Below are positions 3,227 to 58,172 of a stretch of DNA of 64,000 bases, piece after piece. Origin of the DNA: a virus (Duplodnaviria; Heunggongvirae; Uroviricota; Caudoviricetes); IMG/VR virus record IMGVR_UViG_3300028584_000450, positions 159,394-223,393 of that record; one strand, given 5' to 3'. A program made the translations under genes and the position numbers. Position 1 is the stretch's first letter. Each line of letters begins with the position of its first letter. Under the pieces are notes generated by a model. The model had not been told where the DNA came from. It saw only the letters and a program-made list of their open reading frames with translations, and made no database searches.

Positions 3227-4127
3227 TAAATCTAAACCAATAACATATATTGAATATGTCGAATTAAAATTGACTAACCAACCCACACATCATATGAATT
3301 CGATAGAAGATATGATATTTAAAGATGGATCTAAAATTAAAGATATAGAAAACCCATCAGAAAAATTATGCAAAATAGTAATAACTCAAAATGGAATGAA
3401 TATTCAATATATAAAGAATCAAACTAAAGACCTATGTCGATTAGCAATTCACAATCAACCATTATCAATTCAACACATAAAAGATCAAACTCCGGAATTA
3501 TGTGAAATTGCAGTTGAATTAAATATAACTGCATTGAAACATATAGTAAATCAAACTATGGAATTATGTACAACTGCAATATATCGACATCCACAAGCAA
3601 TATCATATATAAGAAACCAAATTCCAAAATTATGCACAACAGCAGTTATGCAAGATGGATTATCATTAAAGTATATAAAATACCAAACTAAATTACTTTG
3701 TAGACTTGCAGTTATGCAAAATCCATATGCATTTACATTTGTAAAAAAACAGACTTTACAGATATGTAAATTAGCGGTTAGTCGAGATGGGTATATGATT
3801 AATTTTGTAAAACATCAAACTCCAGAACTTTGTAAACTTGCGGTTAAGCAAAGTGGAATTTCAATCGTACATATAAAAAAACAAACTCCGGAACTTTGTA
3901 AACTTGCAGTAATGTCAGATAGTGTAGCATTAAAGTATATAAAATATCAAACTCCGGAAATATGTAAAATTGCAATTGAACAACAACCATCAATGTTACC
4001 ACATGTAAAAGATAAAACATTAGAATTATGTATGATTGCAATTAAACAAAATCGATTAACAATTGGGTGTATTAGTAAAACTAAATTCCCAGAAGCCCAC
4101 GAATATTGGAGGTTATTATATGAGTAA
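3219..4127 (+). CDS. DUF4116-like tandem-repeat protein, array paralog 4
   Basis: Same family. C-terminal KFPEAHEYWRLLYE. Confidence 0.8.
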   Translation: MDSKSKPITYIEYVELKLTNQPTHHMNSIEDMIFKDGSKIKDIENPSEKLCKIVITQNGMNIQYIKNQTKDLCRLAIHNQPLSIQHIKDQTPELCEIAVELNITALKHIVNQTMELCTTAIYRHPQAISYIRNQIPKLCTTAVMQDGLSLKYIKYQTKLLCRLAVMQNPYAFTFVKKQTLQICKLAVSRDGYMINFVKHQTPELCKLAVKQSGISIVHIKKQTPELCKLAVMSDSVALKYIKYQTPEICKIAIEQQPSMLPHVKDKTLELCMIAIKQNRLTIGCISKTKFPEAHEYWRLLYE

Positions 4128-4812
4128 GAAAAAACTTAAGAAAGAACTTAAGAAAAAAGTTAAAGTTAATTATTGTGTGGAATTACACAAACATATAATT
4201 ATGAAAGAACCATATTTAATTCAACATATGAAAATTCAACCTATAGAATTTTGTAAATTATTAATAGAACAAAACTCATGGTCTATCAAATATATAAGAG
4301 ACCAAACTCCGGAATTATGTAAACTTGCAATTGAGAGAAATCCAAATAATATAAGACATATAAGAAATCAAACTGAAGAATTATGTAAATTTGCAATTGA
4401 AAGAAGTGCAAGTGCAATCCAATATATAATAAACCAAACAGAAGACATCTGTAAACATGCAATTAGGTTTGATTCATATTCAATTAAATATATAAAGAAT
4501 CAAACCCCAGAATTATGTAGACTTGCAATTAATAAAAATGGTTGGTCGATACAACATATAAAAGATCAAACGGAAGAATTCTGTAAACTTGCAATAATGG
4601 ATAGTTGCACCTCAATTCAATTTATAAAAAATCAAACAGAAGAAATATGCAAATATTCAATCATACAATTACCAGGAACAATTAAATATATACGAAAGCC
4701 AACTAAAGAATTATGCATATTGGCAATTGAATTAAGTTCAAATGCAATTAATTACATTAATAAAAATAAATTCCCAGAAGCCCACGAATATTGGAGGTTA
4801 TTATATGGATAA
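4120..4812 (+). CDS. DUF4116-like tandem-repeat protein, array paralog 5
   Basis: Same family. Start after GGAGG. Confidence 0.8.
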   Translation: MSKKKLKKELKKKVKVNYCVELHKHIIMKEPYLIQHMKIQPIEFCKLLIEQNSWSIKYIRDQTPELCKLAIERNPNNIRHIRNQTEELCKFAIERSASAIQYIINQTEDICKHAIRFDSYSIKYIKNQTPELCRLAINKNGWSIQHIKDQTEEFCKLAIMDSCTSIQFIKNQTEEICKYSIIQLPGTIKYIRKPTKELCILAIELSSNAINYINKNKFPEAHEYWRLLYG

Positions 4813-5386
4813 TGTAAGTATTGGAGGATGTTATATGGATAAAGAAGAATTTAAAGCATTTAAATATGAAATTGATCAGAATCCTGAAAGATGTAAACGT
4901 GCAATTGAAATGGATGGGAAATTAATAATGCATGTGAGAGATCAAACAGAAGAGTTATGTAAAATTGCAATTGAAAGAAATCCATATGCAATCAAATTTA
5001 TAAGAAAACAAACTCCCGAATTATGTAAACTTGCAGTTAAACGAGATGGATATGTATTAGAATACATAAAAGATCAAACAGAAGAGATATGTGAATTAGC
5101 AGTTAAAGCAGATCCATGGTCAATTGAATTCGTAAAAAAACAAACTCCAGAATTATGCTTGACTGCGATAAGAACAAATGCAACTGCACTTGAATATATA
5201 GAAAATCAACCAGCATCACTTTGTAAACTTGCAGTTGAGTTAAATCCATGGGCGATTAAATATGTAAAAGACCAAACTATCGATCTATGTAAATTTGCAA
5301 TAGGACAAGATAAATTGATAATAACATATATAGATAAAAATAAATTCCCAGAAGTGTATGAATATTGGAGATTATTATATGGATAA
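4805..5386 (+). CDS. DUF4116-like tandem-repeat protein, array paralog 6
   Basis: Same family. Junction SD+ATG duplicated in tandem (alternative start 4835). Confidence 0.75.
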   Translation: MDNVSIGGCYMDKEEFKAFKYEIDQNPERCKRAIEMDGKLIMHVRDQTEELCKIAIERNPYAIKFIRKQTPELCKLAVKRDGYVLEYIKDQTEEICELAVKADPWSIEFVKKQTPELCLTAIRTNATALEYIENQPASLCKLAVELNPWAIKYVKDQTIDLCKFAIGQDKLIITYIDKNKFPEVYEYWRLLYG

Positions 5387-5903
5387 AGAACAATTTGAAA
5401 AATATAAAAACCAAATTTCAGAAAATATTACTATTTTCCAGGAACTCTCAATAGAAGACCAAACTCCAGAACTTTGCATGTTTGCAGTTGATAAATGTGC
5501 ATGGTCTATGCAATATGTAAAAAATCAATTTCCAGAATTATGCAAATTGGCAGTTGAACGAGATGGATGTTCAATCCAATATATAAGAGACCAAACTCCG
5601 GAATTATGTAAACTTGCCATTGAAGAAAACCCATATGCAATGGCATATATAATAGATCAAACAAAAGATTTATGTAAACTTGCAGTCACTCTAAATGGTC
5701 GGGCAATACAATATATGGAGGATCAAATTCCAGAATTATGTGAAACATCAGTGTTATATGAACCCCATCTGATTCAATTTATAAGAAAACCAACTATAGA
5801 ATTATGTAAACTTGCAATTGAACAAAATAAATTGGTGATAATGTATATAAATAAAAACAAATTCCCAGAAGTACATGAATATTGGAGATTATTATATGGA
5901 TAA
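5379..5903 (+). CDS. DUF4116-like tandem-repeat protein, array paralog 7
   Basis: Same family. Confidence 0.8.
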   Translation: MDKEQFEKYKNQISENITIFQELSIEDQTPELCMFAVDKCAWSMQYVKNQFPELCKLAVERDGCSIQYIRDQTPELCKLAIEENPYAMAYIIDQTKDLCKLAVTLNGRAIQYMEDQIPELCETSVLYEPHLIQFIRKPTIELCKLAIEQNKLVIMYINKNKFPEVHEYWRLLYG

Positions 5904-6426
5904 AGATGCGTTAAGAAATTATGAATCTAGAATTTTTAAAAACCCACATCTATTTAAGGATATGCCAGTTGAATATCAAACACCAACATTATGCAAATTT
6001 GCAATTGAACAGGTTCCACAATTATTAAAATATATAAGAAGACAAACCCCAACATTATGTAAAATTGCAATTCAGCAAAATCAATATGCATTAGAGTATG
6101 TAAGATACCAAACATACGATATATGTAAATTAGCAGTCACCCTAAATGGATTTGCAATTCGATTTGTAAAAAATCAAACAAAAGAATTATGCAAATTGGC
6201 AATTAAAGAAGATCCATGGTCTATTAAATATATAAAAGATCAAACTCCGGAATTATGCAATTTTGCAGTTAAATTACATGGACCCATAATAGGGAGTATA
6301 TCAGATGAATATATAACTACAGAGTTATGTATAACAGCAATTAAACAAAACCAAAATTCAATTGATTATATTAACAAAATTAAATTCCCAGAAGCCTATG
6401 ATTATTGGAGATTATTATATGGATAA
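5896..6426 (+). CDS. DUF4116-like tandem-repeat protein, array paralog 8
   Basis: Same family. Confidence 0.8.
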   Translation: MDKDALRNYESRIFKNPHLFKDMPVEYQTPTLCKFAIEQVPQLLKYIRRQTPTLCKIAIQQNQYALEYVRYQTYDICKLAVTLNGFAIRFVKNQTKELCKLAIKEDPWSIKYIKDQTPELCNFAVKLHGPIIGSISDEYITTELCITAIKQNQNSIDYINKIKFPEAYDYWRLLYG

Positions 6427-6916
6427 AAGAATGAATGAAGAAGAATATGAACAATTTAAATCTGGAATTAATCAAACTCCAGAACTATGTAAACGGGCAA
6501 TTAAACAATATGCATGGTCATTCAAATTTATAAAAAACCAAACTCTTGAACTATGTAAACTTGCAATTGAAAGAGATGCATATATAATAGAATATGTAAA
6601 CGATCAAACTCCAGAATTATGTAAATTAGCAATTGAGAGAAATGGATATTGCTTTCAATATGTAAAAGATCAAACTCCAGAGTTATGCGAACTTGCAGTT
6701 AAGAAAAATTCACTCATAATAGAATATGTAAAAGATCAGACACTAGAATTGTGTCGATTAGCAATATCAATCAACCCATGGACAATTAAATTGGTAAGAA
6801 AGCCAACTATAGAATTATATAAATTTGCAATTGAATTAAATCAACAATCAATACACTATATAGATGAAACTAAATTCCCAGAAGTACATGAATATTGGAG
6901 GTTATTATATGGATAA
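6419..6916 (+). CDS. DUF4116-like tandem-repeat protein, array paralog 9
   Basis: Same family. Confidence 0.8.
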   Translation: MDKRMNEEEYEQFKSGINQTPELCKRAIKQYAWSFKFIKNQTLELCKLAIERDAYIIEYVNDQTPELCKLAIERNGYCFQYVKDQTPELCELAVKKNSLIIEYVKDQTLELCRLAISINPWTIKLVRKPTIELYKFAIELNQQSIHYIDETKFPEVHEYWRLLYG

Positions 6917-7751
6917 CAAATTAATACATCAATTTATGTCTGGTGATGCACTACAACAATTTATATCTGGTGAAAATCAAACTCCAGAACTTTGCAATGA
7001 ATTGGTATATAAATATCCATGGATTATTGAACATGTAAAAAATCAAACCTGGAAATTATGTAAACTTGCAATTAAAGGAAATCCACTTACAATAAAATAT
7101 ATAAGAAACCAAACAAAAAAACTTTGTGAATTGGCAATTAAACAAGATGTAAGATCAATTCAACATATAAAAGATCAAACAGAAGACTTGTGTGAATTAG
7201 CAATTAAACAAAGTTCATCTGCAATTCAATTTATAAGGGAACATACAGAAAAATTATGTAAGCTTGCAATTGAAGAGCATCCATGGTCTATGCAATATGT
7301 AAGAAATCAAACTCCCGAAATATGCGAATTTGCAGTTAAAGAATATGGATGTACATTAAAATACATAAAGGACCAAACTCCGGAATTATGCAGACTTGCA
7401 ATCATTCAAGATGAATGTGCTCTAGAATATGTAAAAGAACAAACAGAAGAACTGTGCAAAATTGCAATAAAAAAAGATGGGTTAGTGTTAGAATATGTAA
7501 AAGTTCAAACAAAAAATCTGTGCGAACTTGCAATTATAGAAGATCCAAGATCAATGCAATATGTAAACGATCAAACTCCGGAATTATGCAAACTTGCGAT
7601 TAAATTAGATCCATGGATTATACAATTTATAAAAAATCCAACTATAGAACTATGTAAACTTGCTATTGAAATAGACAAATATTCAATACGATATATAGAT
7701 AATTATAAATTCCCAGAAATATATGAATATTGGAGATTATTGTATGGATAA
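6909..7751 (+). CDS. DUF4116-like tandem-repeat protein, array paralog 10
   Basis: Same family. Confidence 0.8.
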   Translation: MDNKLIHQFMSGDALQQFISGENQTPELCNELVYKYPWIIEHVKNQTWKLCKLAIKGNPLTIKYIRNQTKKLCELAIKQDVRSIQHIKDQTEDLCELAIKQSSSAIQFIREHTEKLCKLAIEEHPWSMQYVRNQTPEICEFAVKEYGCTLKYIKDQTPELCRLAIIQDECALEYVKEQTEELCKIAIKKDGLVLEYVKVQTKNLCELAIIEDPRSMQYVNDQTPELCKLAIKLDPWIIQFIKNPTIELCKLAIEIDKYSIRYIDNYKFPEIYEYWRLLYG

Positions 7752-8310
7752 TGAAAAAATGAGTAATAAAGAATTAAAATTATTCAAAGCTGGAATTAAT
7801 CAGACTCCAGAATCATGTAAACTTGCTATTGAATTATATCCACATCTACTTAAGTTTATAATAAACCAAACTCCCGAATTATGTAAACTTGCAATTGAAA
7901 GAGATGCATATTACATTCAATATGTAAAAGATCAAACAACAGAACTCTGTAAACTTGCTATTAGAGAAAACCAACATTGCATTCAATATGTAAAAGATCA
8001 AACAGAAGAATTATGTAAACTTGCAATTGAGGGAAATGCATATGCAATTTCACATATAAAAAATCCAACTGAAGAGATGTGTAAATTAGCAATTTTACGA
8101 AATCCATGGTCTATCAAATATATAAAAGACCAAACTCCCGAATTGTGTAAATTAACATTATTAGATGAACCATATATGATTAAATATATACGAAAACCAT
8201 CTATAGAATTATGCAAACGTGCAATTGAATTAAATAAATATTCAATTAATTATATAGATGAAACTAAATTCCCAGAAATTCATGAATATTGGAGGTTGTT
8301 ATATGGATAA
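7744..8310 (+). CDS. DUF4116-like tandem-repeat protein, array paralog 11
   Basis: Same family. Confidence 0.8.
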   Translation: MDNEKMSNKELKLFKAGINQTPESCKLAIELYPHLLKFIINQTPELCKLAIERDAYYIQYVKDQTTELCKLAIRENQHCIQYVKDQTEELCKLAIEGNAYAISHIKNPTEEMCKLAILRNPWSIKYIKDQTPELCKLTLLDEPYMIKYIRKPSIELCKRAIELNKYSINYIDETKFPEIHEYWRLLYG

Positions 8311-8743
8311 AGACGACGATATAAATCATCTTAGAGATCTTGAAGAATTTAAGTCTGGAATTGGACAAACAGAAACCAGATGTAAAGAATTAATATATCA
8401 ATATCCATGGGTGATTAAATATATAATCAATCAAACAGACGAACTTTGTAAATTTGCAATTAATCGAAGTGTATATTCATTTGTATATATAAAAAAACAA
8501 ACTCCAGAACTTTGCAAATTGGCAGTTGCGATTGATCCGAATATATTAGAATATATAGAAAATCAACCAACATCACTTTGTAAACTTGCAGTTGAGTTAA
8601 ATCCATGGGCGATTAAATATGTAAGGAATCAAACTCCCGATTTATGTAAACTTGCAATAGAATCTAACAAATGGACATTAAAATACATTGATAGAACTAA
8701 ATTCCCAGAAATGCGAGAATATTGGAGACTATTATATGATTAA
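8303..8743 (+). CDS. DUF4116-like tandem-repeat protein, array paralog 12
   Basis: Same family. Ends LLYD with no overlapping start. Confidence 0.8.
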   Translation: MDKDDDINHLRDLEEFKSGIGQTETRCKELIYQYPWVIKYIINQTDELCKFAINRSVYSFVYIKKQTPELCKLAVAIDPNILEYIENQPTSLCKLAVELNPWAIKYVRNQTPDLCKLAIESNKWTLKYIDRTKFPEMREYWRLLYD

Positions 8744-8780
8744 AAAGTATATGGTAAATTATGATACCGAGATCTAACAC

Positions 8781-8888
8781 TCGAATTATATAAATTTGCA
8801 ATTGAACGAAACCAATATATACTACATTCGATAGATACTCGAGAATTCCCAGAAATAAAAGAATATTGGGGTTTATTATATGGGTAAA
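8781..8888 (+). pseudogene. decayed C-terminal fragment of an array paralog
   Basis: Encodes LYKFAIERNQYILHSIDTREFPEIKEYWGLLYG with no N-terminal part. SD GGAGG mutated to GGGG. Confidence 0.6.
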
Positions 8889-9305
8889 AGAATTATGACT
8901 GAAAGTGAATGGATTGAGATGCTTGAAAATGCATCGGATGTTCGTACTCGATCATACGATAAAGATATGAAAACTATTATAGAAATAATGAATCATATTC
9001 CAAAACTATGCAAATTAGCTATTGAACAATATTCATGGGCATTCCAACATATAAGAAAACAAACCCCGGAGTTATGCAAATTTGCAGTTGAAAATAATCC
9101 ATGGTTAATAAAATTTGTAAGAAATCAAACCCCAGAATTATGTAAAATTGCAGTAGAATCAAATTGTTGGAATTTAGAATATATAAGGAATCCAACAAAA
9201 GAATTATATATATCTGCAATTAAACAAGATAAGAGAATAATTATAATAATAAATAAAATTAAATTCCCAGAAGTATATGAATATTGGAGGTTATTGTATG
9301 GATAA
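8880..9305 (+). CDS. DUF4116-like tandem-repeat protein, array paralog 13
   Basis: Divergent N-terminus, then the same repeats and C-terminal motif. Confidence 0.75.
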   Translation: MGKRIMTESEWIEMLENASDVRTRSYDKDMKTIIEIMNHIPKLCKLAIEQYSWAFQHIRKQTPELCKFAVENNPWLIKFVRNQTPELCKIAVESNCWNLEYIRNPTKELYISAIKQDKRIIIIINKIKFPEVYEYWRLLYG

Positions 9306-9741
9306 TGAAATGGATAATGAAATGAATGATGAAGAATATGAACAATTCAAATCTGGAATTAATCAAACTCCCGAACTATGTAAACAGGCAATTAAACAAT
9401 ATGTATGGGCAATACAATATGTAAAAGATCAAACAGAAGAGTTATGTAAACTTGCAATTGAAGAAAATGCATATGCAATTTCACACATAAAAAATCCAAC
9501 TGAAGAGATGTGTAAATTAGCAATTTTACGAGATTCATGGTCTATTAAATATATAAAAGATCAAACTCCTGAAATATGTAAATTGGCATTATTAAATGAA
9601 CCATACTTGATTCAACATATACGAAATCCAACTACAGAACTGTGTAAGTTTGCAATTAAACATAAGAGTGCAGCAATTGAATTTATCGATAGAGATAAAT
9701 TTCCAGAAGTATATGAATATTGGAGGTTATTATATGAATAA
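9298..9741 (+). CDS. DUF4116-like tandem-repeat protein, array paralog 14
   Basis: Same family. Confidence 0.8.
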   Translation: MDNEMDNEMNDEEYEQFKSGINQTPELCKQAIKQYVWAIQYVKDQTEELCKLAIEENAYAISHIKNPTEEMCKLAILRDSWSIKYIKDQTPEICKLALLNEPYLIQHIRNPTTELCKFAIKHKSAAIEFIDRDKFPEVYEYWRLLYE

Positions 9742-10108
9742 AGATGACGATATAAATCATCTTAGAGATATTGAAGATTTTATGTCTGATAAAAATCAAA
9801 CAGAACAAAAATGTAAAGATGTGCTTAATAATAATGGTTATATGTTAACATATGTAAAGAATCGAACTCCTGAATTATGTAAACTTGCAGTTATGACAAA
9901 TGGAGGCGCATTAGAATATGTAAAAGATCAAACACCTGAAATATGTAAACTTGCAATATTGCGTGATCCATGGGCAATTAAACATGTAAAAGAACAAACT
10001 CTGGAATTATGTAAATTTTCAATAGAATGCAATAAATTCACAATACAATATATTGATAAAGATAAATTTCCAGAAGCACACGAGTATTGGAGGTTATTAT
10101 ATGAATAA
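9734..10108 (+). CDS. DUF4116-like tandem-repeat protein, array paralog 15
   Basis: Same family. Confidence 0.8.
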   Translation: MNKDDDINHLRDIEDFMSDKNQTEQKCKDVLNNNGYMLTYVKNRTPELCKLAVMTNGGALEYVKDQTPEICKLAILRDPWAIKHVKEQTLELCKFSIECNKFTIQYIDKDKFPEAHEYWRLLYE

Positions 10109-10559
10109 AAAAACATTAGAAAAATATAAACGACAAATTCGAAAGGATGCTCCAAATATATTCAATATACCAATAGAAAATCAAACTCCGGAACTTTGCA
10201 TATATGCAATTAATATAAATCCATGGGCATTTCAATATATAACGAACCAAACTCCCGAAATATGTAAACGGGCAATAGAAGAAAATCCATGGATGATTGA
10301 ATATGTAAAAGATCAAACAGAAGAATTATGTAAACTTGCAATTAAACTACTTCCATATTCAATCAAATTCATAAAAGAACAAACAGAAGAATTATGTAAA
10401 TTAGCAATTAAATTAGATGCTCGTTGCATTCACTATGTAAAAAATCAAACAGAAGAAATATGTATATTAGCAGTTAAGAAAGATAAAATGTCAATACATA
10501 ATATTGATAAAGATAAATTCCCACAAGCACATGAATATTGGAGACTGTTATATGAATAA
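10101..10559 (+). CDS. DUF4116-like tandem-repeat protein, array paralog 16
   Basis: Same family. Confidence 0.8.
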   Translation: MNKKTLEKYKRQIRKDAPNIFNIPIENQTPELCIYAININPWAFQYITNQTPEICKRAIEENPWMIEYVKDQTEELCKLAIKLLPYSIKFIKEQTEELCKLAIKLDARCIHYVKNQTEEICILAVKKDKMSIHNIDKDKFPQAHEYWRLLYE

Positions 10560-11076
10560 AGATAAATTTGAAAAATATAAACAACAAATTTCAGAAAATA
10601 TGTATGTATTCCAGGATATACCAATAGAAGATCAAACTCCGGAGTTATGCTTGTTTGCAATTAATATAAATCCATGGGCATTTCAATTTATAACAGACCG
10701 ATCTCCCGAAATATGTAAACGGGCAATAGAAGAAAATCCATGGATGATTGAACTTATAGAAGATCAAACAGAAGAATTATGTAAACTTGCAATTAAACTA
10801 CTTCCAGTTTCATTTAAATTCATAATAAACCAAACTCCTGAATTATGTAAACTTGCAGTTGAAAGAAATGTATATTGTATTCAATATGTAAAAGATCAAA
10901 CGGAAGAATTATGTAAACTTGCAATTGAACAAGATGGGAAATTATTAAAATATGTGAAAAATAAAACATTAGAATTATGCATGATTGCAATTAAACAAGA
11001 TCGGTTAGCAATTAAACGTATTAGTAAAATTAAATTCCCACAAGCACATGAATATTGGAGACTATTATATGGCTAA
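10552..11076 (+). CDS. DUF4116-like tandem-repeat protein, array paralog 17
   Basis: Same family. Confidence 0.8.
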   Translation: MNKDKFEKYKQQISENMYVFQDIPIEDQTPELCLFAININPWAFQFITDRSPEICKRAIEENPWMIELIEDQTEELCKLAIKLLPVSFKFIINQTPELCKLAVERNVYCIQYVKDQTEELCKLAIEQDGKLLKYVKNKTLELCMIAIKQDRLAIKRISKIKFPQAHEYWRLLYG

Positions 11077-11677
11077 TGTAGACTATTATATGGATGATGG
11101 AGCGATAATAGTTGGTAATGTTAATATAGACGAAATGAAAAAAATAAAACACATAAGGAAAATTAATAAAAGTGAAGAAGAATCAAAATTAGCAATTAAA
11201 CAAAATCCATTTGCATTACAATATGTAGAACATCAAACTAAAGAATTATGTTTGCATGCAATTAAAAAATCACCATGGGCATTTGAATATGTAAAGGATC
11301 AAACAGAAGAAATATGTAAATTCGCAGTTGAACTAAGTCCTTTTACACTTAAATTTATAAAAGAGCAAACAGAAGAATTATGTACAATTGCAGTTAATTT
11401 AGTGCCATCAGTAATTAGATATGTAATAAATCAAACCCCGGAATTATGCATGTCTGCAATAAGAAAAGATGCATTATCATTAGAGTATATACAAGTTCAA
11501 ACAAAAGAACTTTGTGAAATTGCAGTTAAAATTAATCCATGGGCAATGAGATATATAAAAAATCCAACCATCCGATTATATAAACTTGCAATTGAACAAG
11601 AACCAAAGACAATCGAATATATTGATGAGACTAAATTTCCAGAAGCTCATGAGTATTGGAGATTACTATACGGCTAA
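11069..11677 (+). CDS. DUF4116-like tandem-repeat protein, array paralog 18 (last)
   Basis: Same family. C-terminal EYWRLLYG. No downstream paralog. Confidence 0.8.
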   Translation: MANVDYYMDDGAIIVGNVNIDEMKKIKHIRKINKSEEESKLAIKQNPFALQYVEHQTKELCLHAIKKSPWAFEYVKDQTEEICKFAVELSPFTLKFIKEQTEELCTIAVNLVPSVIRYVINQTPELCMSAIRKDALSLEYIQVQTKELCEIAVKINPWAMRYIKNPTIRLYKLAIEQEPKTIEYIDETKFPEAHEYWRLLYG

Positions 11678-42166: not shown

Positions 42167-42192
42167 TAATTAATTAAATAGGAGATAATACA

Positions 42193-42522
42193 ATGGAACT
42201 GAAACAAGTAGCTGAACAGAAAATGGAAATCATAATTACCGCCCATAATAAATGGGTACATATCAAATATCTCCAGGGATTCCATTCACCACATGAATGT
42301 ACTTCCAAAAAAGCACAATTAAGTCAAAGCGAATCGATAAGAACTGAAAATTTCTATCAATTTCCGAAATTTATAAAATATTGCGATAAATGCAATACAA
42401 GTATGTATCCATTCTCTGAATTACCAGAACCCGTTAAAGAATATAGACGAGAGATCATATCGTCAATATTAGATGTAATTGTTGAATTGGAAGAGATCGA
42501 AAAAATTGAAGAATTAGTTTAA
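42193..42522 (+). CDS. RyR-domain-like protein with zinc-ribbon insert, family member 4
   Basis: AHNKWVHIKYLQGFHSPHEC...YCDKCNTSMYPFSELPEPVKEYRREII. Confidence 0.5.
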   Translation: MELKQVAEQKMEIIITAHNKWVHIKYLQGFHSPHECTSKKAQLSQSESIRTENFYQFPKFIKYCDKCNTSMYPFSELPEPVKEYRREIISSILDVIVELEEIEKIEELV

Positions 42523-43036: not shown

Positions 43037-43198
43037 ATGGATGCTACAGTAACGGTTTCAGTAGAAGAATATACTAAATTAATCCAAGCAAGAACTAAAC
43101 TTCAATGTCTAGAAAATTGCGGTGTTGACAATTGGAGTGGATATGACGAAGCTATGGAAGATTACTATCGTGAAATTGATGTCGAAGAAGAAAAATAA
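43037..43198 (+). CDS. small acidic protein (53 aa)
   Basis: ATG after AATAGGACATAATATAAA. Ends GAA GAA GAA AAA TAA. Confidence 0.4.
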   Translation: MDATVTVSVEEYTKLIQARTKLQCLENCGVDNWSGYDEAMEDYYREIDVEEEK

Positions 43199-47848: not shown

Positions 47849-47882
47849 ATGGGCAGTAGACTAGTTTCAATCTACTGCCCAT
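47849..47882. terminator. bidirectional terminator hairpin
   Basis: Stem ATGGGCAGTAGA/TCTACTGCCCAT, between convergent 47567(+) and the MCP(-). Confidence 0.6.
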
Positions 47883-47885
47883 TGT

Positions 47886-49943
47886 TTACGCTTTAAACGT
47901 TCCAAGAATTGCTTTGAGTTTACCCGAAAGTTCGGATAGCTCAATAGCTTTATTATTTATTTGAGAACTATTATTCGATATATCTTGAGCTGAATGATCC
48001 ACATGAGCAATGTCGCTTGCAATTTCACCAGAAGCAACACTAACTTGACTTAGATTTTCACCAACTTCACTTATACCTAATGATGCATTATTAATATTAC
48101 TTGAAATCTCAACAGTAACTGCAGATTGTTCTTCAACAGAAGTAGCAATGTTAGATACAATAGAATTTATATCATTAATAATAAGTGAAATCTCAGATAT
48201 TTCAGATATAGTTATATTTGTAGTAGTTTGAACTTCTATGATAGTTTTTTGAATCGTAGAAGTTGCCGCTGCTGTCTGTTTTGCAAGTTCTTTTATTTCA
48301 GATGCAACCACAGCAAACCCTTTACCAGCTTCTCCAGCCCTTGCAGCTTCAATTGTAGCATTAAGAGCAAGAAGATTGGTTTGTTCTGAAATAGCATTAA
48401 TTACAGATGTTATTTGTTCAATCTCCTGAGCAGCTTTTCCAAGATTTACTATAGATGTACTAACTTTAGAAGCAACAGTTACCGCATTCTCACTAACACA
48501 TCTGGCTTTTTCTGAATTAATAGCAATCTCATTAATAGTCGATGTCATCTCTTCAGTAGCAGCTGCTACCATATTAATGTTAGATGAAGCTTCTTCCATT
48601 GCTGCTGCAACAGAACTTATATTAGATGTCATCTCTTCAGTAGCAGAGGCAACTGCTCCAGACTTTTCTGATGCATCTTTAGCTCCAGAAGACATAATAT
48701 TTGATATAGAAAGTAAAGATACAGACGAAGTATCCAATGTTATTGCATCAGTTGTGATGGTTTTTATAAGTCCTTGCAATTTTTCCATAAATAAATTAAA
48801 TGCTTTGCAAAGATTACCAATTTCATCACCACTTGAAACATTAAGACGCTTAGTTGTATCCCCTTCACCTTCAGCAATATCATATAATCCAGAAACAACA
48901 CAATTTATTGGATTGACGATAATAACACTCGCAATAAAATAAATAACAACAAATAAAATAACTAAAGCCATAATTGAAATTATAATTGTTATATTTCGAA
49001 GAGAATATACATCTGCCATAATCTCATTTACTGGAATAACAATACCAATAGTCCAAACAGTTCCAGTTCGCCCAGGCTTTATTGGAGAAAATACCAAAAC
49101 ACTTTTTTTGCCACTAATTACTGAAATGCGTTCTTCTGTAATTGGTTCTCCTCGAAGAAGTAAATCATATGCTGGTAAACTTATAAATTCTTGAATACTT
49201 CGTCCGATAATATCTTTCTTTGGATGCGCAATAATAGTTCCGGTATCAGATATTAAACATCCATATCCACTAGTATATGGTTTAATATTAAGGACAAGCT
49301 CTTGCATTTTATCTATAGAGAAATCAACACCAGCAACACCGATTATTGAATTTTGATTCTTTATAGGAACACTAACACTTAAAATGGATATAGTTTGTCC
49401 ACTAATGGTGTAATTAACAGGAGGTAATATCACTTCAGTACCAAGTGCTCTTGGTTTTGTATAATATCCAGTATATGTATTATCTTCAGGTTCAGGACAT
49501 GGTTCTATATGTGTACCTTCAATTCGATTCCAATATGGAAGAAACCGACCCTTAGAATCATGACCCTTATGATCAATAAAGTTAATATCAGGACCAAGTA
49601 TATTTGGTTCTAATACCGTCCATACACCAAGATAATCTGGATTATCAACAAGCATATCTTTTAACATTAAAACTAACATATCTCGATCTAACGGTATCTT
49701 CTGAGTTAATAATCCAGAAAATATTTGGGATAATGTTCTTGCCGAACCCAATGTCGCATCAAGTTCAATTCGAACTTCAGTAGCATATCGACTTGCCATT
49801 TGTGCTGTCTTTTCAAATGCAATCTTCTTAGAGGTTGAATATGTTCTATTTATCGTTATAAAGTTCGAAATAACAAGTGTTATAAATAAAACAGAACATA
49901 TCAAAATCAATAGTTTGCCCTGTAAACCTATTTTTTTACCCAT
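47886..49943 (-). CDS. methyl-accepting chemotaxis protein (dCache-type sensor, HAMP, MCP signalling domain)
   Basis: N-terminal TM, ~270-aa periplasmic Cache-like region, second TM, HAMP. Highly conserved [35 protein letters not shown]. Confidence 0.9.
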
Positions 49944-49966
49944 TATAAAACCTATTTTTTAATTAA

Positions 49967-52900
49967 TTATTTTCTTCGATATCCATATATGACTTTAACA
50001 CGAATTTCCTCATATTCATACCGCATAACTGTCCGTAAATTCACCGGCGCCCCAGTGTTTTCAGTAAAAGAAAGACAAAGCCCAGAATCAATAATAGACC
50101 CACGTACAGAAATGGTTCTACCAATAACAGTAGGGGTGAATTTCGAAATCGTTGGAAAGCACCAGAAGAATTCATAACTCTGGGAAGTAAATTTGAAATT
50201 TGAGTAATTACGTAAAAAACTAGTACTATGCCAATAATCATTGTCGGTATGTAAATGCTCCAAAATATATTCATATGGTAAATACCTCCTATCATTTGAA
50301 TTTGGTATAAATGGAAATGATTCTGAATCATTATTCCATGGTATAAGTCGGCTTACCGTTGGTATTGAATTATGGATGTTAATAAAGCTCATAGTACGAG
50401 CATATGAGGTTGAAATATCACTTGGATTTCGCAATGTCATATCTGGATGCCATGTTGTTACAACAAGAGAAAATTCAGCAAACCCAATTTGAATTGGATT
50501 GTAATTTTGATTATAAATATCAGGACATTTTATAAAATTTGGATTTGGAGGTAATACTAAACCAGTTCCTCCCAAAGTTCCAGTACATCCAGTACCTCCG
50601 GTTATAATTGGCCAATACCCAGTTCCACCAGTTGTTCCAATAGTCGATCCAATATCTCCAGTTCCTCCAGTTGTTACACCAACACCTCCGGTCCCACCAG
50701 TACCACTTAAATATTCCTCACAATATAAAGTTCTTCTATATTCTAAACAACAAACTCTCATTATTCCAGTAAATTTATGATTAACATCAAATTGCACCTC
50801 TAAATATTGCAAATTAACATAATAAATCTTCAACGGATGAACTCTAAGATTTTGCTCATTATAGAATATTAATTTAGGATTAAAATTCATATTATGCCGC
50901 AATGTAATCCATTCTGCAGATTCGTAATAAATTGCACTAGTATTTGTTGCTGAATCTTCACCAAGAATATTATAATCAGCATAAGTAGTACAAGTATCTC
51001 GGCTCTTAGAATTTTTGCAGGCACAATTTTTATTTTCATTATATAAGCTACAAAAAATGTTTGTCTTATCTTGTTCTGTAGATACAGTAGATATTTTACA
51101 AAATCCACGCTCTGGTTTATCGAATATAATTTGTATCGAATTATTATCTATAAACTTTATAGTTCTTGGGTTAAGTGTTAATGGTGGTGGGTATGTTGTG
51201 TCAAATGCTGGAGAAAGTAAATAATCATCCAGAGTTGCCGTTGAATATCCATACGTTCGTATTACTATAGAAGTAGTATTAAGATTATGGTGAATATCCC
51301 AAGTACAAGAATCATAGAATACATTAGGTTCATATTTCTCAATGAGACTTAAATTAGAACTAATATCAATTACATCTCCAGCTTCATTGATTGCATATGG
51401 AGGACTTTCTCCACGAACCCCCATACCTAATGGAACTGAATATGTATATGTATCAATATAGTTAGTTGGAATATAATTAGTTTTATACCCACTTTTATCA
51501 ATAATATAAATTGTTCCAGAAAACCGAAACGGAATTGAAATGTTAGAAGCATTAGGATTATAAGTTATTAACTCGACCTTTATTTTTTGAGGGGTTATAT
51601 AACCCAACAAAAGGGTATGGTTATTAAATTGGTCAATATCAACGCTATCATCAGGAACTACCATAGTATCTAAATCAATACTATCAAGGTTATGTGTTAT
51701 TGTAAAACGACTTGTCTTATTTGTCACTTTAAGAATATACATATTTCGACAGTTACAATTACCATACTCAGTATAAACTGGGTCTTGAAATGGATTTGAT
51801 GGTTCAAATGTAGGCATGTGATCGTAAATATAGACCTTGCCGCTTACTGGTTCATCAAAATGCAACTCTAATCGTGTAGTGTCGATATATGTGATTTTAT
51901 TCGGAACATATTTCTTCCCACTTAAAGAAATGATTGGAGAAATATAAAGATCGTAACTATCAAAATAATGTTCTATGTACCAAGTTTTAGTACCATTTTT
52001 TCGGGAATGGATATAAGCCCCAAAAGCAAGTTTGTCTGTTGGTTTGGTTATTGCATTAACTACCGAAGTTCCAAATTTAATGGAATCTTTGGATAATATT
52101 GGATATGTATCTAAGATTGCAACTGATTCGGATTCTAAATTAGGACCATCAATATTAAATGAATTATCTATAATCGAATACATCCCAGATATTATATCAT
52201 TCTCTTCATCCAACCATACATCCTCAGAGAATATATCAGTATATCCATGAGAACCCATAACATCTAATAATGGATATTCAATAAATTCTTCATTAGGAAC
52301 TACATGTGGAAATGGAATTGGAATAGGTTCTAAAGAGCCACTTATCTCCTCTATTAAGACAATATGAACTTTAGAAATTACAGGAACTAAATCAATACTC
52401 GGTTGATTACGAACTTTAATATTACACTCAACAGTAATAATATTATCTGATTCTCCATGATATTTAAGAACATAAAAATTTATTTTACAGAACAACAAAT
52501 TTGCCGAATGAGAATAAATACTATTAGCTTTTATAACTAATGTATTTCTATCTGGTCTAAATGAAACTAAATTATAATCATTCCCGTACGAAATAGTCTC
52601 TACATTTGGAAATAAATAGGGACTCGTAATCTTTAAAGTAATCGTCTCTATATTCACAGAATGAGCATCATAAATATTAATTGGTAATGAGAAATCTTGA
52701 CCAGCATAAGAGATAATATTTTTAAGTTTGATATAAGGGTTAAAAATAATATTGTCTGGAGGAATATAGTTTAGTTTTTCTATTACTATTTCCTCTTCTG
52801 GGGTTATTAAGAAATATTGATTATCTATTTTAACATGAGAATCATAATATTGTTTGTTATAATGTTCTGAATCATAGTTATATGAATAATAGTGAGATAG

Positions 52901-55900
52901 GTAAATATGGTAATTATAATAAAAGATATCATTTATATAAGTAAACTCTGGTATGGTTATTTCATTTATATTTGGATCTAATAACTCAGATGTATATGAT
53001 ATTGAATGATTTAATATAGTGTAAAACTCATTCAATGGAGTTACGGTGGTCTCAAATACTAGGTAAAAAATCTTTGAGTCGCATCTCTCTTTATTTAACG
53101 GCAGAATGTCCTCATGATATTCACTATTGGGAAATATCTTCTGATTATATATCTGAAATGAACATTCTATGAGATTCGACTCATCTAAAATATTTGGAAC
53201 AATTACTGGGCTGTGTGAAATATCTATCATGGGGGTTTCTGCAGGATCTACTGGAGGGACTGTTCTGAAATCAAACCAATCAGAAACAAGTTTTGGCGGG
53301 GTTGTAAAAATACTTGAGTCATACTTAACAGAATAAATATCCATAAAAATGTCATACGTTCCACTATCTGAATAAACTATTGGAATAATTACGGGGCGCA
53401 CCTTATTTGTTAGGCCTAACCCTATGACTAAACTAGGCATTTTATCGATATAACTATAACTATCATCGATTATTACTGTTGGTTTTTTCCATAAAAGTTT
53501 TACACTTCCAATTAAATTATCTAAATTAAATTTAATATGAGAGTCACTCGTCGCAAATGGATTTCCATTCTGATTCTTATGAGTAATCACTAAACAATCT
53601 CTAGAAAATAATAGATCATAATTAGGAATAGGATTACCAATTCTATCAAAACATTTTATATCTAATCGATTATAAATATCATATAAATACTCAAGTTTTA
53701 ACTGTAATACTTCCTCTGGAGTTAAATCTGGACCAAAGTAATCTGAAAGATAATACCGATATTCATCTTTACTACTAATTAAACTACTTAAGTTAATTAC
53801 CCAATACTTACTTGTATAATGATGTAATAATAATCTAGTTACTGAATAATCTATATCCATTGTACTACTAAATATATGACATATACCATTCTGTAATATT
53901 AGTTTATCAGGATTAGTATCACAATGAAAGTACAATATTATTTGATCCTTATTAATTACTAATATATTTTTTGGTATTATTGGATTATTATATTGGTTAA
54001 AACATTCTATTCTTATATTTGTTGTATTTAGGTTATGATTTATCTCCCATAAGTACTTAGGCTTTATTATATAATGAGTGTAGAGATGATTATATTTATT
54101 ATTTAACGGCAAAATATATTTATTTCGCTCGACAATTAGGGCTTGAGTTGAGTATTTCCCTAATCCAATATAAGTTCTCGCTGGTCTATATAATATAAAG
54201 TTGGAAGAATCATTAACAACATCAAGTTCAAATTTAATTAAACGATCTAATGCAACATATCGATTCATCAATGAATATTTATTATTTACTTCTATGTCAT
54301 CTGTGAATATCAATGGCATAGGTAAATGTGGATCAATATAATTGACTTCATAATTAAAATAGTACAATTGATATTTATATGAGAATTCATCTACGGTTAA
54401 ATTAGTATCAGAGAATGGTGTAAGTGGATTATAATCCAATTTTGCTGGAGTATAGTACACTTTCGGAATAAGTACAGTTGGAATCGGTAATCTATGTGAA
54501 TAATTATACTTAGTATAAGGATCGTTAATTCTATTATCAAATGGATTACTAATTATATTATAAGATCTGGACGCCAATAAAGTACCTGTACCATCAACAT
54601 CTATCGGAGTATCGTCTGGATCGAATAATGAAATTGGAACTATATCATGATCTAATAAATCATTTCGGGATACTGAAATTGAACCTGCTGTTTTAATATA
54701 TACAATGTTTGGATCTGAACATGGTATTGTATCATCTATAGAATCTGATTCTACTAAATCGGTTCTATGTTTGAAAAAATAAATTAATGAAAGGTTACAA
54801 GTAACAGATTTAACATAGAATTCAACAGTAGTATTATCTGTAGAAGGACTAAATATTAAATCATTACTATTTAAACCATGATGAATTGACCAATATGAAT
54901 TACTAAATGCAAATGTATTTGTATATAAATCTTTAGTACTATCATTTGTATTTATTAAACTCTGACTCTGAGGAATATCACACTCAATTTCTACATAACC
55001 ACTTGAACTCCATGGAATTAAAAATACATGGTCTTCTTGTCTTAATAATGTAACTCTAATTGAATAATTATCTATAATATCTAATTGATAAAATACTCTA
55101 TTTGGATTAGTATAATCTTGTGTTAAATTATTTGGAAATGTAAATAATGATAGATCTAGTAAATCAATAAAAGATAATATATCATCAGACCATACTTTTA
55201 TCTTAATTGCTTGGGTATTTAAATTATGTACTATATCCCATTTATGTTGATTATTTATTTGTTTGAATTGTAATATTGTTTTATTCTTTATATAGTAAGG
55301 TTTTATACAAGTATTGCAATTATCCGTTATGGATGGATTGATCGTTATATAACCTTTATATTTATTATCAAAGGTTAAAGTTAAATGATTGTTTATGATA
55401 TCTATTTTTAACGGCGAAATTGAGCGTCCGAAGATGTCAAAACAATTAATAACGATCTTATCATAGAACTCCCCTGTCACATCCATCTTATAAATAGCAT
55501 CTGGTGATGGAGAACATGTTTTATCTGGAGTGAAAAATTCATCATAATTAAAACTACAAGTCCAGATATGTGAGTAAAAGCGTTCTATATAAACAAATGA
55601 AGCACAATCAATATTAGATACAACTACTTCTGCATCTTGAGAATAAAATGTCAAATCTTTAAGTACAGCATTATGATTATCTACTAGTTGAACATCATTA
55701 TAATTTAAATAAAAAGGTGAATACCAAGAGTCATATATATTGATCAAAATAAAAGGAGAATCGAGATTGTGATTAACGTTATAATTAATAATATTCTCTT
55801 CATAGACAATATATCTATCATTTGGAGACGAATTTATCACAGAATAACAGCATTGAGTAGACCCACTTCCGGTATGGCCGGTTCTTCCAGGATTACCAAT

Positions 55901-56125
55901 ATTACCAGTACCACCAGTCTCGCCTACAACACCTTGAGAACCAGGATCACCAGTACCGCCAGTTGGACCAACACTTAATCCCAACCAACCTCTCTTTAAA
56001 CCAAAAATAAAACTTTTATCTAGAATATTCATTATTTTACCATATGAAAAATTTGGATTTGATTCTGGTAAACTATCTAAAGGTTTTATCTTTATGTTAC
56101 TAATATTTGGATTATATATTTTCAT
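49967..56125 (-). CDS. giant collagen-like repeat protein (2052 aa), putative fibre/host-recognition protein
   Basis: Gly-X-Y runs near both ends (GPTGGTGDPGSQGVVGETGGTGNIGNPGRTGHTG; GTGGTGGVGVTTGGTGDIGSTIGTTGGTG). N-terminal FGLKRGWLGL domain shared with 57306..58172. Confidence 0.75.
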   Translation of the reverse strand: MKIYNPNISNIKIKPLDSLPESNPNFSYGKIMNILDKSFIFGLKRGWLGLSVGPTGGTGDPGSQGVVGETGGTGNIGNPGRTGHTGSGSTQCCYSVINSSPNDRYIVYEENIINYNVNHNLDSPFILINIYDSWYSPFYLNYNDVQLVDNHNAVLKDLTFYSQDAEVVVSNIDCASFVYIERFYSHIWTCSFNYDEFFTPDKTCSPSPDAIYKMDVTGEFYDKIVINCFDIFGRSISPLKIDIINNHLTLTFDNKYKGYITINPSITDNCNTCIKPYYIKNKTILQFKQINNQHKWDIVHNLNTQAIKIKVWSDDILSFIDLLDLSLFTFPNNLTQDYTNPNRVFYQLDIIDNYSIRVTLLRQEDHVFLIPWSSSGYVEIECDIPQSQSLINTNDSTKDLYTNTFAFSNSYWSIHHGLNSNDLIFSPSTDNTTVEFYVKSVTCNLSLIYFFKHRTDLVESDSIDDTIPCSDPNIVYIKTAGSISVSRNDLLDHDIVPISLFDPDDTPIDVDGTGTLLASRSYNIISNPFDNRINDPYTKYNYSHRLPIPTVLIPKVYYTPAKLDYNPLTPFSDTNLTVDEFSYKYQLYYFNYEVNYIDPHLPMPLIFTDDIEVNNKYSLMNRYVALDRLIKFELDVVNDSSNFILYRPARTYIGLGKYSTQALIVERNKYILPLNNKYNHLYTHYIIKPKYLWEINHNLNTTNIRIECFNQYNNPIIPKNILVINKDQIILYFHCDTNPDKLILQNGICHIFSSTMDIDYSVTRLLLHHYTSKYWVINLSSLISSKDEYRYYLSDYFGPDLTPEEVLQLKLEYLYDIYNRLDIKCFDRIGNPIPNYDLLFSRDCLVITHKNQNGNPFATSDSHIKFNLDNLIGSVKLLWKKPTVIIDDSYSYIDKMPSLVIGLGLTNKVRPVIIPIVYSDSGTYDIFMDIYSVKYDSSIFTTPPKLVSDWFDFRTVPPVDPAETPMIDISHSPVIVPNILDESNLIECSFQIYNQKIFPNSEYHEDILPLNKERCDSKIFYLVFETTVTPLNEFYTILNHSISYTSELLDPNINEITIPEFTYINDIFYYNYHIYLSHYYSYNYDSEHYNKQYYDSHVKIDNQYFLITPEEEIVIEKLNYIPPDNIIFNPYIKLKNIISYAGQDFSLPINIYDAHSVNIETITLKITSPYLFPNVETISYGNDYNLVSFRPDRNTLVIKANSIYSHSANLLFCKINFYVLKYHGESDNIITVECNIKVRNQPSIDLVPVISKVHIVLIEEISGSLEPIPIPFPHVVPNEEFIEYPLLDVMGSHGYTDIFSEDVWLDEENDIISGMYSIIDNSFNIDGPNLESESVAILDTYPILSKDSIKFGTSVVNAITKPTDKLAFGAYIHSRKNGTKTWYIEHYFDSYDLYISPIISLSGKKYVPNKITYIDTTRLELHFDEPVSGKVYIYDHMPTFEPSNPFQDPVYTEYGNCNCRNMYILKVTNKTSRFTITHNLDSIDLDTMVVPDDSVDIDQFNNHTLLLGYITPQKIKVELITYNPNASNISIPFRFSGTIYIIDKSGYKTNYIPTNYIDTYTYSVPLGMGVRGESPPYAINEAGDVIDISSNLSLIEKYEPNVFYDSCTWDIHHNLNTTSIVIRTYGYSTATLDDYLLSPAFDTTYPPPLTLNPRTIKFIDNNSIQIIFDKPERGFCKISTVSTEQDKTNIFCSLYNENKNCACKNSKSRDTCTTYADYNILGEDSATNTSAIYYESAEWITLRHNMNFNPKLIFYNEQNLRVHPLKIYYVNLQYLEVQFDVNHKFTGIMRVCCLEYRRTLYCEEYLSGTGGTGGVGVTTGGTGDIGSTIGTTGGTGYWPIITGGTGCTGTLGGTGLVLPPNPNFIKCPDIYNQNYNPIQIGFAEFSLVVTTWHPDMTLRNPSDISTSYARTMSFINIHNSIPTVSRLIPWNNDSESFPFIPNSNDRRYLPYEYILEHLHTDNDYWHSTSFLRNYSNFKFTSQSYEFFWCFPTISKFTPTVIGRTISVRGSIIDSGLCLSFTENTGAPVNLRTVMRYEYEEIRVKVIYGYRRK

Positions 56126-57305: not shown

Positions 57306-58172
57306 TTATTGTACCAGAAAATAGAATATCTGAAGATGTATTTTTTTACCAGTTGGAATGGATTTTGGTATATTAATATATGCTTCAGTAACATTAGAAA
57401 ATAATTGAATGTACATATTTTTATCAATAATAGCAGAGATAGATTGTCCAGTATCATTATATGCAAGGTTTATAAATGCCCCATTTGTTTTTTTTGGATA
57501 AAATAGGGATGGTTGAAGAGCCAATATATTACCTGGAGAAGGTAAATATATACCATTGATCTGTTCAGATATTAAAATATTTGTAACGGCAAAATCAAAA
57601 GAATTATAATGTGATTTTATTTCAACTTGTAGTTGGGATGTATCTACACCAGTCAAAATAAGATCTATAATAGCTATAGAATTTTCTCCAGTTCCATCAC
57701 CATGATAGGTTCCAACTCCATATGCAGAGCCAGTTCCACCAGTATGCCCAGTACCTCCAGTACCAGCCGTCGATCCAGTACCTCCAGTACCTCCGGAAAT
57801 ACTTCCAGTCCCTGGACTCCCAGTACCTCCAGTAGGCCCAAATCCACCAGTACCTCCAGTAGGTCCAGTACCTCCAGTAGGTCCAGTACCTCCAGTGGTT
57901 CCACGACAACCAGTTGCTCCAGTTGCTCCAGTTTGACCATGAAGTCCAATAGGACCAGTTCCACCACATCTTCCGGTTCCACCAAGAACACTTACACCAT
58001 CTGGCATTAAATCATCTCTAAGTTTCAACCATCCAGTTTGTAATCCAAAATAGAAATTATCATGATCATGGACATAAATAATTCTACCAATAAAAGGAAC
58101 TCCCCAATCGGGAAGTGTAGGAAAAGCTTCAACTGGAAGATAATCAATAATATCTCCACCATATATTTCCAT
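57306..58172 (-). CDS. collagen-like repeat protein (288 aa)
   Basis: ~100-aa G-X-Y tract ([34 protein letters not shown]...). N-terminal domain homologous to the giant protein ([10 protein letters not shown]). Confidence 0.75.

Follow-up and report, generated by a model that had tools for sequence, protein, structure and literature searches.

A complete chemoreceptor gene in an uncultivated AT-rich genome of jumbo-phage type, with its closest relatives in Desulfobacteraceae

A chemoreceptor gene found in viral DNA raises the question of whether it belongs to the phage, and what a phage would do with it, or whether it is host DNA. The question arises here for a methyl-accepting chemotaxis protein (MCP) gene situated in a 64,000-nucleotide (nt) stretch, positions 159,394–223,393 of the IMG/VR record IMGVR_UViG_3300028584_000450. 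The whole of this stretch is referred to as the window, and coordinates are window positions. An initial description made from the nt sequence without database searches (the sequence-only reading) left two alternatives, a phage-borne chemoreceptor or a window that spans a prophage/host junction. The first is borne out: the gene is embedded in a phage-type genome of ~257 kb and displays the codon bias and ribosome-binding context of that genome. The best explanation is that the MCP is a long-resident, intact cargo gene of a jumbo myovirus-type phage, that it came from Desulfobacteraceae MCPs, and that it would bias the swimming of the infected cell. Taken jointly, this is considered moderately probable.

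The gene and the predicted segments of its product are:

47886..49943, minus strand: MCP gene, a complete ATG-to-TAA open reading frame (ORF) of 685 amino acids (aa)
49848..49916, minus strand: candidate transmembrane helix 1 (TM1), aa 10–32, a hydrophobic stretch read by eye from the translation
49008..49838, minus strand: periplasmic dCache_1 ligand-binding domain, aa 36–312, from Pfam and from phmmer matches to solved dCache domains
48921..48995, minus strand: candidate transmembrane helix 2 (TM2), aa 317–341, a hydrophobic stretch read by eye from the translation
48774..48920, minus strand: HAMP domain, aa 342–390, from Pfam (1.1e-8)
47889..48758, minus strand: cytoplasmic signalling domain, aa 396–685 (290 aa), from Pfam MCPsignal
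48534..48647, minus strand: candidate methylation motifs of the N-terminal arm, aa 433–470, with EE pairs at aa 436/437, 450/451 and 464/465
48282..48389, minus strand: signalling hairpin tip, aa 519–554, from a 20-sequence alignment
48117..48146, minus strand: candidate methylation motif SVEEQS of the C-terminal arm, aa 600–609, from sequence and alignment

Four Pfam domains are found in the putative peptide chain and all exceed the curated cut-offs: MCPsignal (PF00015, 1.8e-29, 103 bits with a cut-off of 34.6), dCache_1 (PF02743, 5.5e-15), HAMP (PF00672, 35.7 bits with a cut-off of 25) and MCP-like_PDC_1 (PF22673, 1.2e-7). The sensor is thus assigned to the double PDC/Cache fold, which has a long N-terminal helix. 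Hydrophobic stretches of 23–25 residues are situated on either side of it, and the order of domains is TM1, dCache_1, TM2, HAMP and MCP signalling domain. The complete 685-aa MCP with sensor, HAMP and hairpin that the sequence-only reading described is therefore present, TM1 and TM2 being the stretches seen by eye. In phmmer comparisons the sensor domain aligns end to end with the solved dCache domains 9heh (1e-35), 3lib (1e-33) and 7psg (7e-25), and also 3li8, and it retains the family motifs GRFxPYWN and YYxxP. The cytoplasmic part matches structures of Tsr, TM1143 and PcaY.

The hairpin sequence quoted in the sequence-only reading is aa 523–554, and the tip glutamate is E538. In characterised MCPs the hairpin tip is the CheA/CheW contact region. 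Counted from the HAMP end, the arms of the hairpin extend ~147 residues on each side of E538. In the scheme of Alexander and Zhulin, class 40H consists of 20 heptads per arm of the cytoplasmic hairpin. The predicted arm length fits 40H plus short linkers and appears too short for 44H. The EE pairs are found in the contexts ATEEMTS (twice), AMEEAS and SVEEQS, which are the same in the bacterial paralogues. The segment aa 461–470 is a candidate site that, read by eye, matches the methylation consensus [ASTG][ASTG]xx[EQ][EQ]xx[ASTG][ASTG]. The C-terminus is TFKA, as in the bacterial copies, and an NWETF-type pentapeptide is absent. As predicted from these motifs, the protein is a complete chemoreceptor of class-I topology that keeps all the needed parts.

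Beyond near-identical strain variants, the best homologues of the MCP are all found in Desulfobacteraceae, with 57–66% identity. These dCache_1-HAMP-MCP receptors are 685–686 aa long, share the domain order of the phage copy and align with it almost without gaps; the alignment with 19 of them has 686 columns for the 685 residues. Examples are P0003, P0007 and P0013 in the Desulfobacterium sp. metagenome-assembled genome (MAG) GCA_016342325.1, and P0005 in GCA_030145245.1. In two Desulfobacterium sp. MAGs the bacterial copies are chromosomal tandem triplets, located between ychF and rho in DNA of 54% guanine plus cytosine (GC). The phage copy differs in being single and in a phage gene context, in a GC content at third codon positions (GC3) of 15% as compared with 71–74%, and in its long branch. 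A scan of GTDB genomes with the MCP gave two distant MCPs only.

In neighbour-joining trees the phage copy falls within the Desulfobacteraceae family and its branch is long. Bootstrapping puts the sister group of the phage copy within P0002–P0014/16 in 80 of 100 replicates, and in 58 this group is exactly P0002–P0009. Because the phage copy is nested in the bacterial family, the direction of transfer is from host to phage. Thus the MCP was probably captured, long ago, from the chromosomal dCache-MCP family of the sulfate-reducing Desulfobacteraceae. A Desulfobacteraceae host is what we infer from this single gene.

A separate observation concerns two of the bacterial homologues. P0002 and P0010 differ in their sensor domains and are identical in sequence from ~aa 344, just past TM2, to the C-terminus. 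This pattern points to an exchange between the tandem paralogues, by domain swapping or by gene conversion.

The composition of the gene is that of its surroundings. The MCP gene has a GC content of 33% and a GC3 of 15%, and neighbouring genes show GC3 values of 11–34%, which agrees with the shared local AT-rich composition noted in the sequence-only reading. The nearest bacterial MCP genes have GC3 values of 71–74% (the MAG copies) and 54% (P0004). The start of the gene also carries a signal of the element:

49951..49957, minus strand: AAATAGG initiation context of the MCP gene, 7 nt ahead of its start codon

AAATAGG is found before start codons at 35 sites where 18 are expected, and all 100 shuffles stayed below 35. 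The extended form AAATAGG(A/G) is a Shine-Dalgarno-like signature specific to the element. It is seen directly ahead of starts at, for example, 41154, 41493, 41837, 42176, 42521, 44024, 44496, 49951 (minus strand) and 58180 (minus strand). The GC3 of 15% together with the AAATAGG start context shows that the MCP has long been resident in an AT-rich phage lineage. Both junctions recur in an independent 77-kb assembly with 99.85% identity. Sequence was read for 47.9 kb to one side of the MCP and for ~24 kb to the other side, the latter made up of 14 kb of window and a 9.9-kb extension; this DNA is ORFan-dense and of phage type.

Conservation is strongest in the tip and in HAMP. Across the 20 sequences, which include the phage copy, positions 519–551 of the tip are invariant except for E538, which is at least 90% conserved. 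Identity to the 19 homologues is 87–91% in the tip and 65–83% in HAMP. To the closest bacterial copies it is 46–59% in the sensor, 76–83% in HAMP, 89–91% in the tip and ~61% in the C-terminal arm, and the same gradient across domains is seen among the bacterial paralogues. The phage copy shows 17 unique substitutions at sites that are invariant in the 19 homologues. Most of them are conservative exchanges (L/I, V/I, M/I, K/R, S/T); nine fall in the sensor domain, and HAMP and the tip have none. The residues surrounding the N-terminal candidate methylation motifs are invariant in the bacterial homologues.

Among three phage alleles of the MCP 11 residues vary: eight belong to the sensor domain (binomial p = 0.03) and only one to the signalling domain of 290 aa. 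A comparison of two strains over 26 kb gives 37 single nucleotide polymorphisms (SNPs), of which the MCP has 7 where 2.9 are expected (p = 0.03). Of these 7, six are non-synonymous; all neighbouring genes together show 23 non-synonymous and 12 synonymous changes, at very short divergence. Relative to the bacterial homologues, the GC3 shift has saturated the synonymous sites. We read these patterns, on weak statistics, as probable purifying selection on signal output with a faster evolving sensor domain.

A mechanism can be proposed from these features. The phage MCP would insert into the inner membrane of the infected cell, and its tip, which is conserved with the host paralogues, would dock into the host CheA/CheW array. 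The host CheR and CheB would service its EE motifs. The dCache sensor would then add a chemical input or change the weight of one, perhaps that of a quaternary amine or related small molecule, and the swimming of the infected cell would be biased to the benefit of phage production or transmission. The more specific proposal is offered tentatively, as possible and rather doubtful. In it a virulent jumbo phage of Desulfobacteraceae would carry its own ligand-responsive receptor and steer the infected cell to a niche that favours yield or transmission, possibly in response to quaternary amines, with a sensor that evolves faster than the signalling module. If true, such a steering receptor would constitute phage-directed chemotaxis of infected cells. 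The sequence-only reading had offered steering of the host during lysogeny as an example. Nothing supports this form of the idea: the Pfam matches of 97 window ORFs include no integrase or recombinase family, and the element looks virulent-type.

A possible ligand is hinted at by homology. The sensor domain of PacA (7PSG), solved with betaine, is homologous to the MCP sensor over its full length, and the alignments with PctD (7PRQ) and with chain 6D8V are weaker. PacA binds betaine, choline and carnitine (PMC9040839). On the Desulfobacterium sp. MAG contigs L006 and L007, genes for a BCCT transporter, an MttB-family methyltransferase and a GntR protein are located 3–9 kb from the MCP triplets, within the ~1–9 kb upstream of them. 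The PacA homology and the MAG neighbours together hint that the MCP family may sense quaternary amines, which is a lead and not a result.

The same conserved tip is compatible with a different role, in which the phage MCP is a dominant-negative or decoy receptor that jams or locks the host array and gives no ligand-directed taxis. Such a decoy could serve to stop motility, to save energy, or to exclude competitor phages that are flagellotropic or bind at the pole. A tip conserved with the host paralogues would allow incorporation into the array, and the concentration of 9 of the 17 unique substitutions and of most allelic variation in the sensor could be due to relaxed constraint on ligand binding. 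However, the sensor still aligns end to end with solved ligand-binding dCache domains and keeps both GRFxPYWN and YYxxP. Moreover, full conservation is seen in HAMP and in the methylation motifs, neither of which a simple jammer would need. The decoy is thus regarded as unlikely, though it is the strongest of the alternatives.

The nature of the carrier has also to be considered. The window has a GC content of 30% and contains ~110 dense, mostly small ORFs; as far as 47.8 kb, nearly all of them are plus-strand ORFs. In a Pfam search of 97 window ORFs only 15 families were matched, and there were no housekeeping, integrase/recombinase or che families among them. Scans of the window for tRNA genes and Rfam families gave none, and PHROG scans of 20 window ORFs (those near the MCP and in the 21–38 kb region) gave almost no matches. 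The features that bear on the identity of the element are:

43037..43198, plus strand: T7 gp5.9-like RecBCD inhibitor, 53 aa, Pfam PF25708 (9.3e-19, 67.5 bits with a cut-off of 24.5)
1209..11677, plus strand: array of 17 tandem DUF4116 paralogues, from Pfam and PHROG matches
57306..58172, minus strand: 288-aa collagen-like protein with G-X-Y repeats at ~aa 64–155, matching PHROG tail-fibre families (7e-12)
L005:197-2254, 7.6–9.7 kb past the window end on a 99.9% identical contig: 685-aa ORFan with a tail-terminator-like fold model

The gp5.9-like RecBCD inhibitor is an anti-defence gene 4.7 kb from the MCP and is also present in the precomputed JGI annotation. Successive DUF4116 ORFs overlap by ~29–71 nt. 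In cultured jumbo phages, tblastn with DUF4116 finds 19 places in Bacillus phage AgentSmith, 13 in Pseudoalteromonas phage Slicky01, three in Salicola phage SCTP-2 and one in Agrobacterium phage Atu_ph07.

The MCP is identical to database protein P0156, and a 2052-aa protein encoded directly upstream of it (the giant protein) is identical to P0154. Both are recorded on a 256,898-bp JGI contig; this size is database metadata, and the sequence read covers ~74 kb of it, the 64-kb window plus 9.9 kb. The contig also carries P0122, and a sister contig is Ga0308317_1467490 of sample 3300028549. A second and independently assembled contig of 77,276 bp shows 99.85–99.94% identity over 37.9–64 kb of the window. 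By coordinates it should cover 20.4–64 kb of the window plus 33.7 kb beyond, of which the first 9.9 kb was read. The assembly of this contig stops at window position 20407, a few kb from the DUF4116 array. Encoded in the 9.9-kb extension are a MoxR-like ATPase and its DUF2201/VWA partner, each of which belongs to a phage PHROG, and the end part of a thymidylate synthase. From the same element, a Logan contig of 6 kb adds genes for dCTP deaminase, complete thymidylate synthase and a family-2 glycosyltransferase.

The 685-aa ORFan belongs to a family with a conserved N-terminal segment of ~220 aa and a variable C-terminus, and its homologues are found on contigs of 258–335 kb. The best fold match of its model is the phiKZ neck protein gp98, a tail-terminator fold. 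In BFVD the ORFan matches phage proteins, among them those of Bacillus phage PBS1 and Ralstonia phage RSF1, together with proteins named 'tail sheath stabilizer and completion'. PVC, AFP-like and pyocin proteins are also among its fold matches. A block consisting of the ORFan, DUF2201, MoxR, 114-aa and 322-aa genes is syntenic, with 29–59% identity, with three other AT-rich contigs. One of these, an NCBI contig from a MAG, has 334,525 bp and 30.6% GC and carries an Acb2/Tad1-type gene and an HNH endonuclease. The other two are IMG/VR viral genomes, of 285,572 bp (UViG_3300021520_000002) and 46,802 bp. Upstream of the block, the 285,572-bp genome has a baseplate-like gene at a distance of ~1.4 kb, and three genes for collagen-like tail fibres.

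Some searches gave no relatives. There was no match to GenBank phages by tblastn with the giant protein, the 685-aa ORFan or the 322-aa protein. No result came from IMG/VR scans made singly with the MCP, the giant protein or the MoxR-like ATPase, or from a metagenome scan with the 685-aa ORFan. The 322-aa conserved protein was considered as a possible HK97-type capsid protein and was set aside by judgement on its sequence. The element exceeds 200 kb by the database metadata and carries virion structural genes of a tailed phage. It looks like an uncultivated AT-rich jumbo myovirus-type phage, virulent-type in appearance.

A eukaryotic giant virus was also considered, in view of the AT-rich DNA, the collagen-like proteins and DUF4116. 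It is ruled out by the gp5.9-like gene and the tail-terminator fold, and further by the Shine-Dalgarno-type start contexts and by a receptor that needs a bacterial Che system.

A non-viral AT-rich replicon, such as a megaplasmid, an island for a contractile injection system or the genome of an AT-rich symbiont, would place the MCP in the constitutive service of a cellular host. Capsid, portal and terminase genes were not seen in the ~74 kb read, the tail-terminator fold is present in contractile injection systems (PVC, AFP-like, pyocin) as well, and PcfJ-like and weak TraE matches are found in the window. Yet the best fold match is to the phiKZ neck protein, a gp5.9-like RecBCD inhibitor is present, and a relative carries an Acb2/Tad1-type gene. 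The synteny is with IMG/VR viral genomes that bear tail-fibre and baseplate-like genes, and DUF4116 genes are found in cultured jumbo phages, in multiple copies in three of them. Also, no plasmid-type replication or partition genes and no housekeeping genes are found in the ~74 kb. This type of carrier is therefore considered improbable.

Slightly more improbable still is a decaying passenger, a neutral hitch-hiker of no function for the phage. The six non-synonymous changes among seven SNPs, the long branch in the tree, and the finding of no MCP in the relatives of the phage are what decay would give. However, all 685 codons are still open after a GC3 shift from 54–74% to 15%, which implies very many substitutions, and no unique changes are found at the invariant sites of the tip and HAMP. 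The non-synonymous excess is common to all neighbouring genes. Least probable by far is that the MCP is ordinary host chromosomal DNA and the window a prophage/host junction or an assembly chimera: MCPs are typically host genes, the closest homologues are chromosomal and head and packaging genes were not seen in the window, but the GC3 of 15% against 54–74% in bacterial homologues, the phage-typical AAATAGG context and the junctions that recur identically in the independent 77-kb assembly exclude a boundary or chimera, and ORFan and phage-type genes extend across the 47.9 kb and ~24 kb on either side. An integrated prophage would be expected to show an integrase or recombinase and flanking host genes; the 64 plus 10 kb contain neither such an enzyme family nor a host-type gene, and the window has no tRNA gene. 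The junction put forward in the sequence-only reading is thus rejected; the bacterial homologues, for their part, are situated in a housekeeping context of 54% GC.

The gene upstream of the MCP and the end of their transcription unit are:

49967..56125, minus strand: 2052-aa ORFan gene, directly upstream of the MCP gene, with a collagen-like run at aa 53–88 (55862–55969)
47849..47882, minus strand: 15-bp stem-loop, starting 4 nt past the MCP stop, between convergent genes

The sequence-only reading was right that the two genes are co-directional, both being on the minus strand. For the same reason its placement of the MCP 24 bp upstream of the giant gene has to be reversed: the MCP is downstream (3′) of the giant gene, and the gap between them is 23 nt (49944–49966). 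Its 'giant collagen-like fibre' was also an overstatement, since clean G-X-Y repeats are confined to aa 53–88 (~36 aa) and the rest is ORFan. A short imperfect stretch is found near aa 1806–1857, and the PHROG tail-fibre matches are confined to aa 52–118. Most of the chain consists of repeated modules with a W-x-I-x-H-N-L-N motif. The giant protein shows no Pfam match, no homologue beyond its own 90% cluster among 5.8 billion proteins, and nothing in a PDB sequence search or by tblastn against GenBank phages. It is probably a fibre or another virion-surface protein. Its N-terminus and that of the 288-aa collagen-like protein look alike by eye; the likeness is not significant by BLASTP.

The giant gene and the MCP are the sole minus-strand unit, with plus-strand blocks on both sides. 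The simplest reading is co-transcription of the MCP with a fibre-like ORFan, with the MCP distal. The stem-loop past the MCP stop has a predicted RNA fold of −25.9 kcal/mol (z = −6.75) and no clean U-tract, and is probably a bidirectional terminator, of putative intrinsic type. No sigma-70-like site is found within 1 kb upstream of the MCP start, in a scan that is uninformative in DNA as AT-rich as this (matches fewer than in shuffled controls).

Several points weigh against a long-resident phage receptor that biases swimming. The function of the MCP in an infected cell is entirely inferred. The MCP was not seen in the relatives of the phage clade, and is therefore a lineage-specific acquisition and not a conserved feature of the clade. 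There are no further che genes in the window, so host Che proteins would be required. If the giant gene is a late virion gene, a co-transcribed MCP would be made late, with little time for behaviour. The phage has a GC content of 30% and the nearest homologues 46–54%, a difference of 16–24 points, and the true host may be a relative of lower GC. As to the carrier, genes for a major capsid protein, a portal or a terminase were not seen among the ~74 kb read of 257 kb, and the gene with the tail-terminator fold is outside the window, on a near-identical contig.

Phage carriage of MCPs has been reported before and is rare, so the present gene is not a new category. Three MCPs are found on Desulfovibrio vulgaris prophage scaffolds, in a study that cites one earlier one (PMC9448743). 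Nitrosospira phages carry CheR, CheY and an MCP (bioRxiv 10.64898/2026.05.02.722434). Like the present MCP, the reported virus-encoded MCPs are phage-carried, and they are read as auxiliary genes that modulate host chemotaxis. The D. vulgaris MCPs also come from phages of sulfate reducers, but they are prophage-borne and belong to the order Desulfovibrionales. Unlike them, the present MCP is found in a ~257-kb virulent-type jumbo phage and is fully ameliorated in composition.

Complete MCPs are also present in other large phages. The cultured Vibrio phage vB_VmeM-Yong XC31 (MK308674.1, 290.5 kb) contains a 610-aa dCache_1-HAMP-MCPsignal protein (L015:2207-4039), the architecture seen here. Microcystis phage MaAM05 (MW495066.1, 273.9 kb) contains a 508-aa Protoglobin-MCPsignal protein (L016:1856-3382). 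Both are annotated in GenBank only as 'hypothetical protein'. Full-length NIT-MCPsignal-CZB proteins are found in two AT-rich IMG/VR genomes, UViG_3300026521_000471 (224 kb; L013:8777-10963) and UViG_3300026488_000025 (80 kb; L012:8756-10885). These large-phage MCPs share 27–45% identity with the present one over partial coverage only, and in two cases the sensor domain is of another type. Each was acquired independently, by phages that are unrelated. Together with these cases, the present gene shows that complete MCPs recur in large phages and go unannotated.

Auxiliary genes of phages are mostly discussed as metabolic boosters, and control of host swimming is barely explored; none of the papers found gives a functional test of a phage chemoreceptor. 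The present receptor is an unusually clean test case, being full length, with its closest host family known, and intact through complete compositional amelioration. Its carrier belongs to a lineage without a match in the GenBank phage collection for two of its conserved proteins. In practical terms it is a candidate for an LBD-Tar chimera (ligand-binding domain fused to Tar) or for a ligand screen, and a host-linking marker for an uncultivated jumbo-phage clade of sulfidic sediments.

Other repeated elements are seen in the window. Four tandem genes at 41168–42522 on the plus strand encode proteins of ~105 aa each (104, 110, 104 and 109 aa) and are probably paralogues. Two window ORFs show weak Pfam matches to the RyR domain, and the database annotation records a faint RyR match on the third of the tandem genes.

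The 12-mer TAACGGCAAAAT is found in 8 copies, with up to one mismatch, where 0.6 are expected; plus-strand copies are at 11733, 53096, 54104, 55409, 56251, 57173 and 57584. Six copies are grouped within 53–57.6 kb, three of them intergenic and three antisense within the giant gene. At the antisense copies the coding strand of the giant gene encodes the peptide repeat ILPLN or a close variant. The 12-mer may act as a promoter or regulator site of the phage, or else may be a by-product of the protein repeats.

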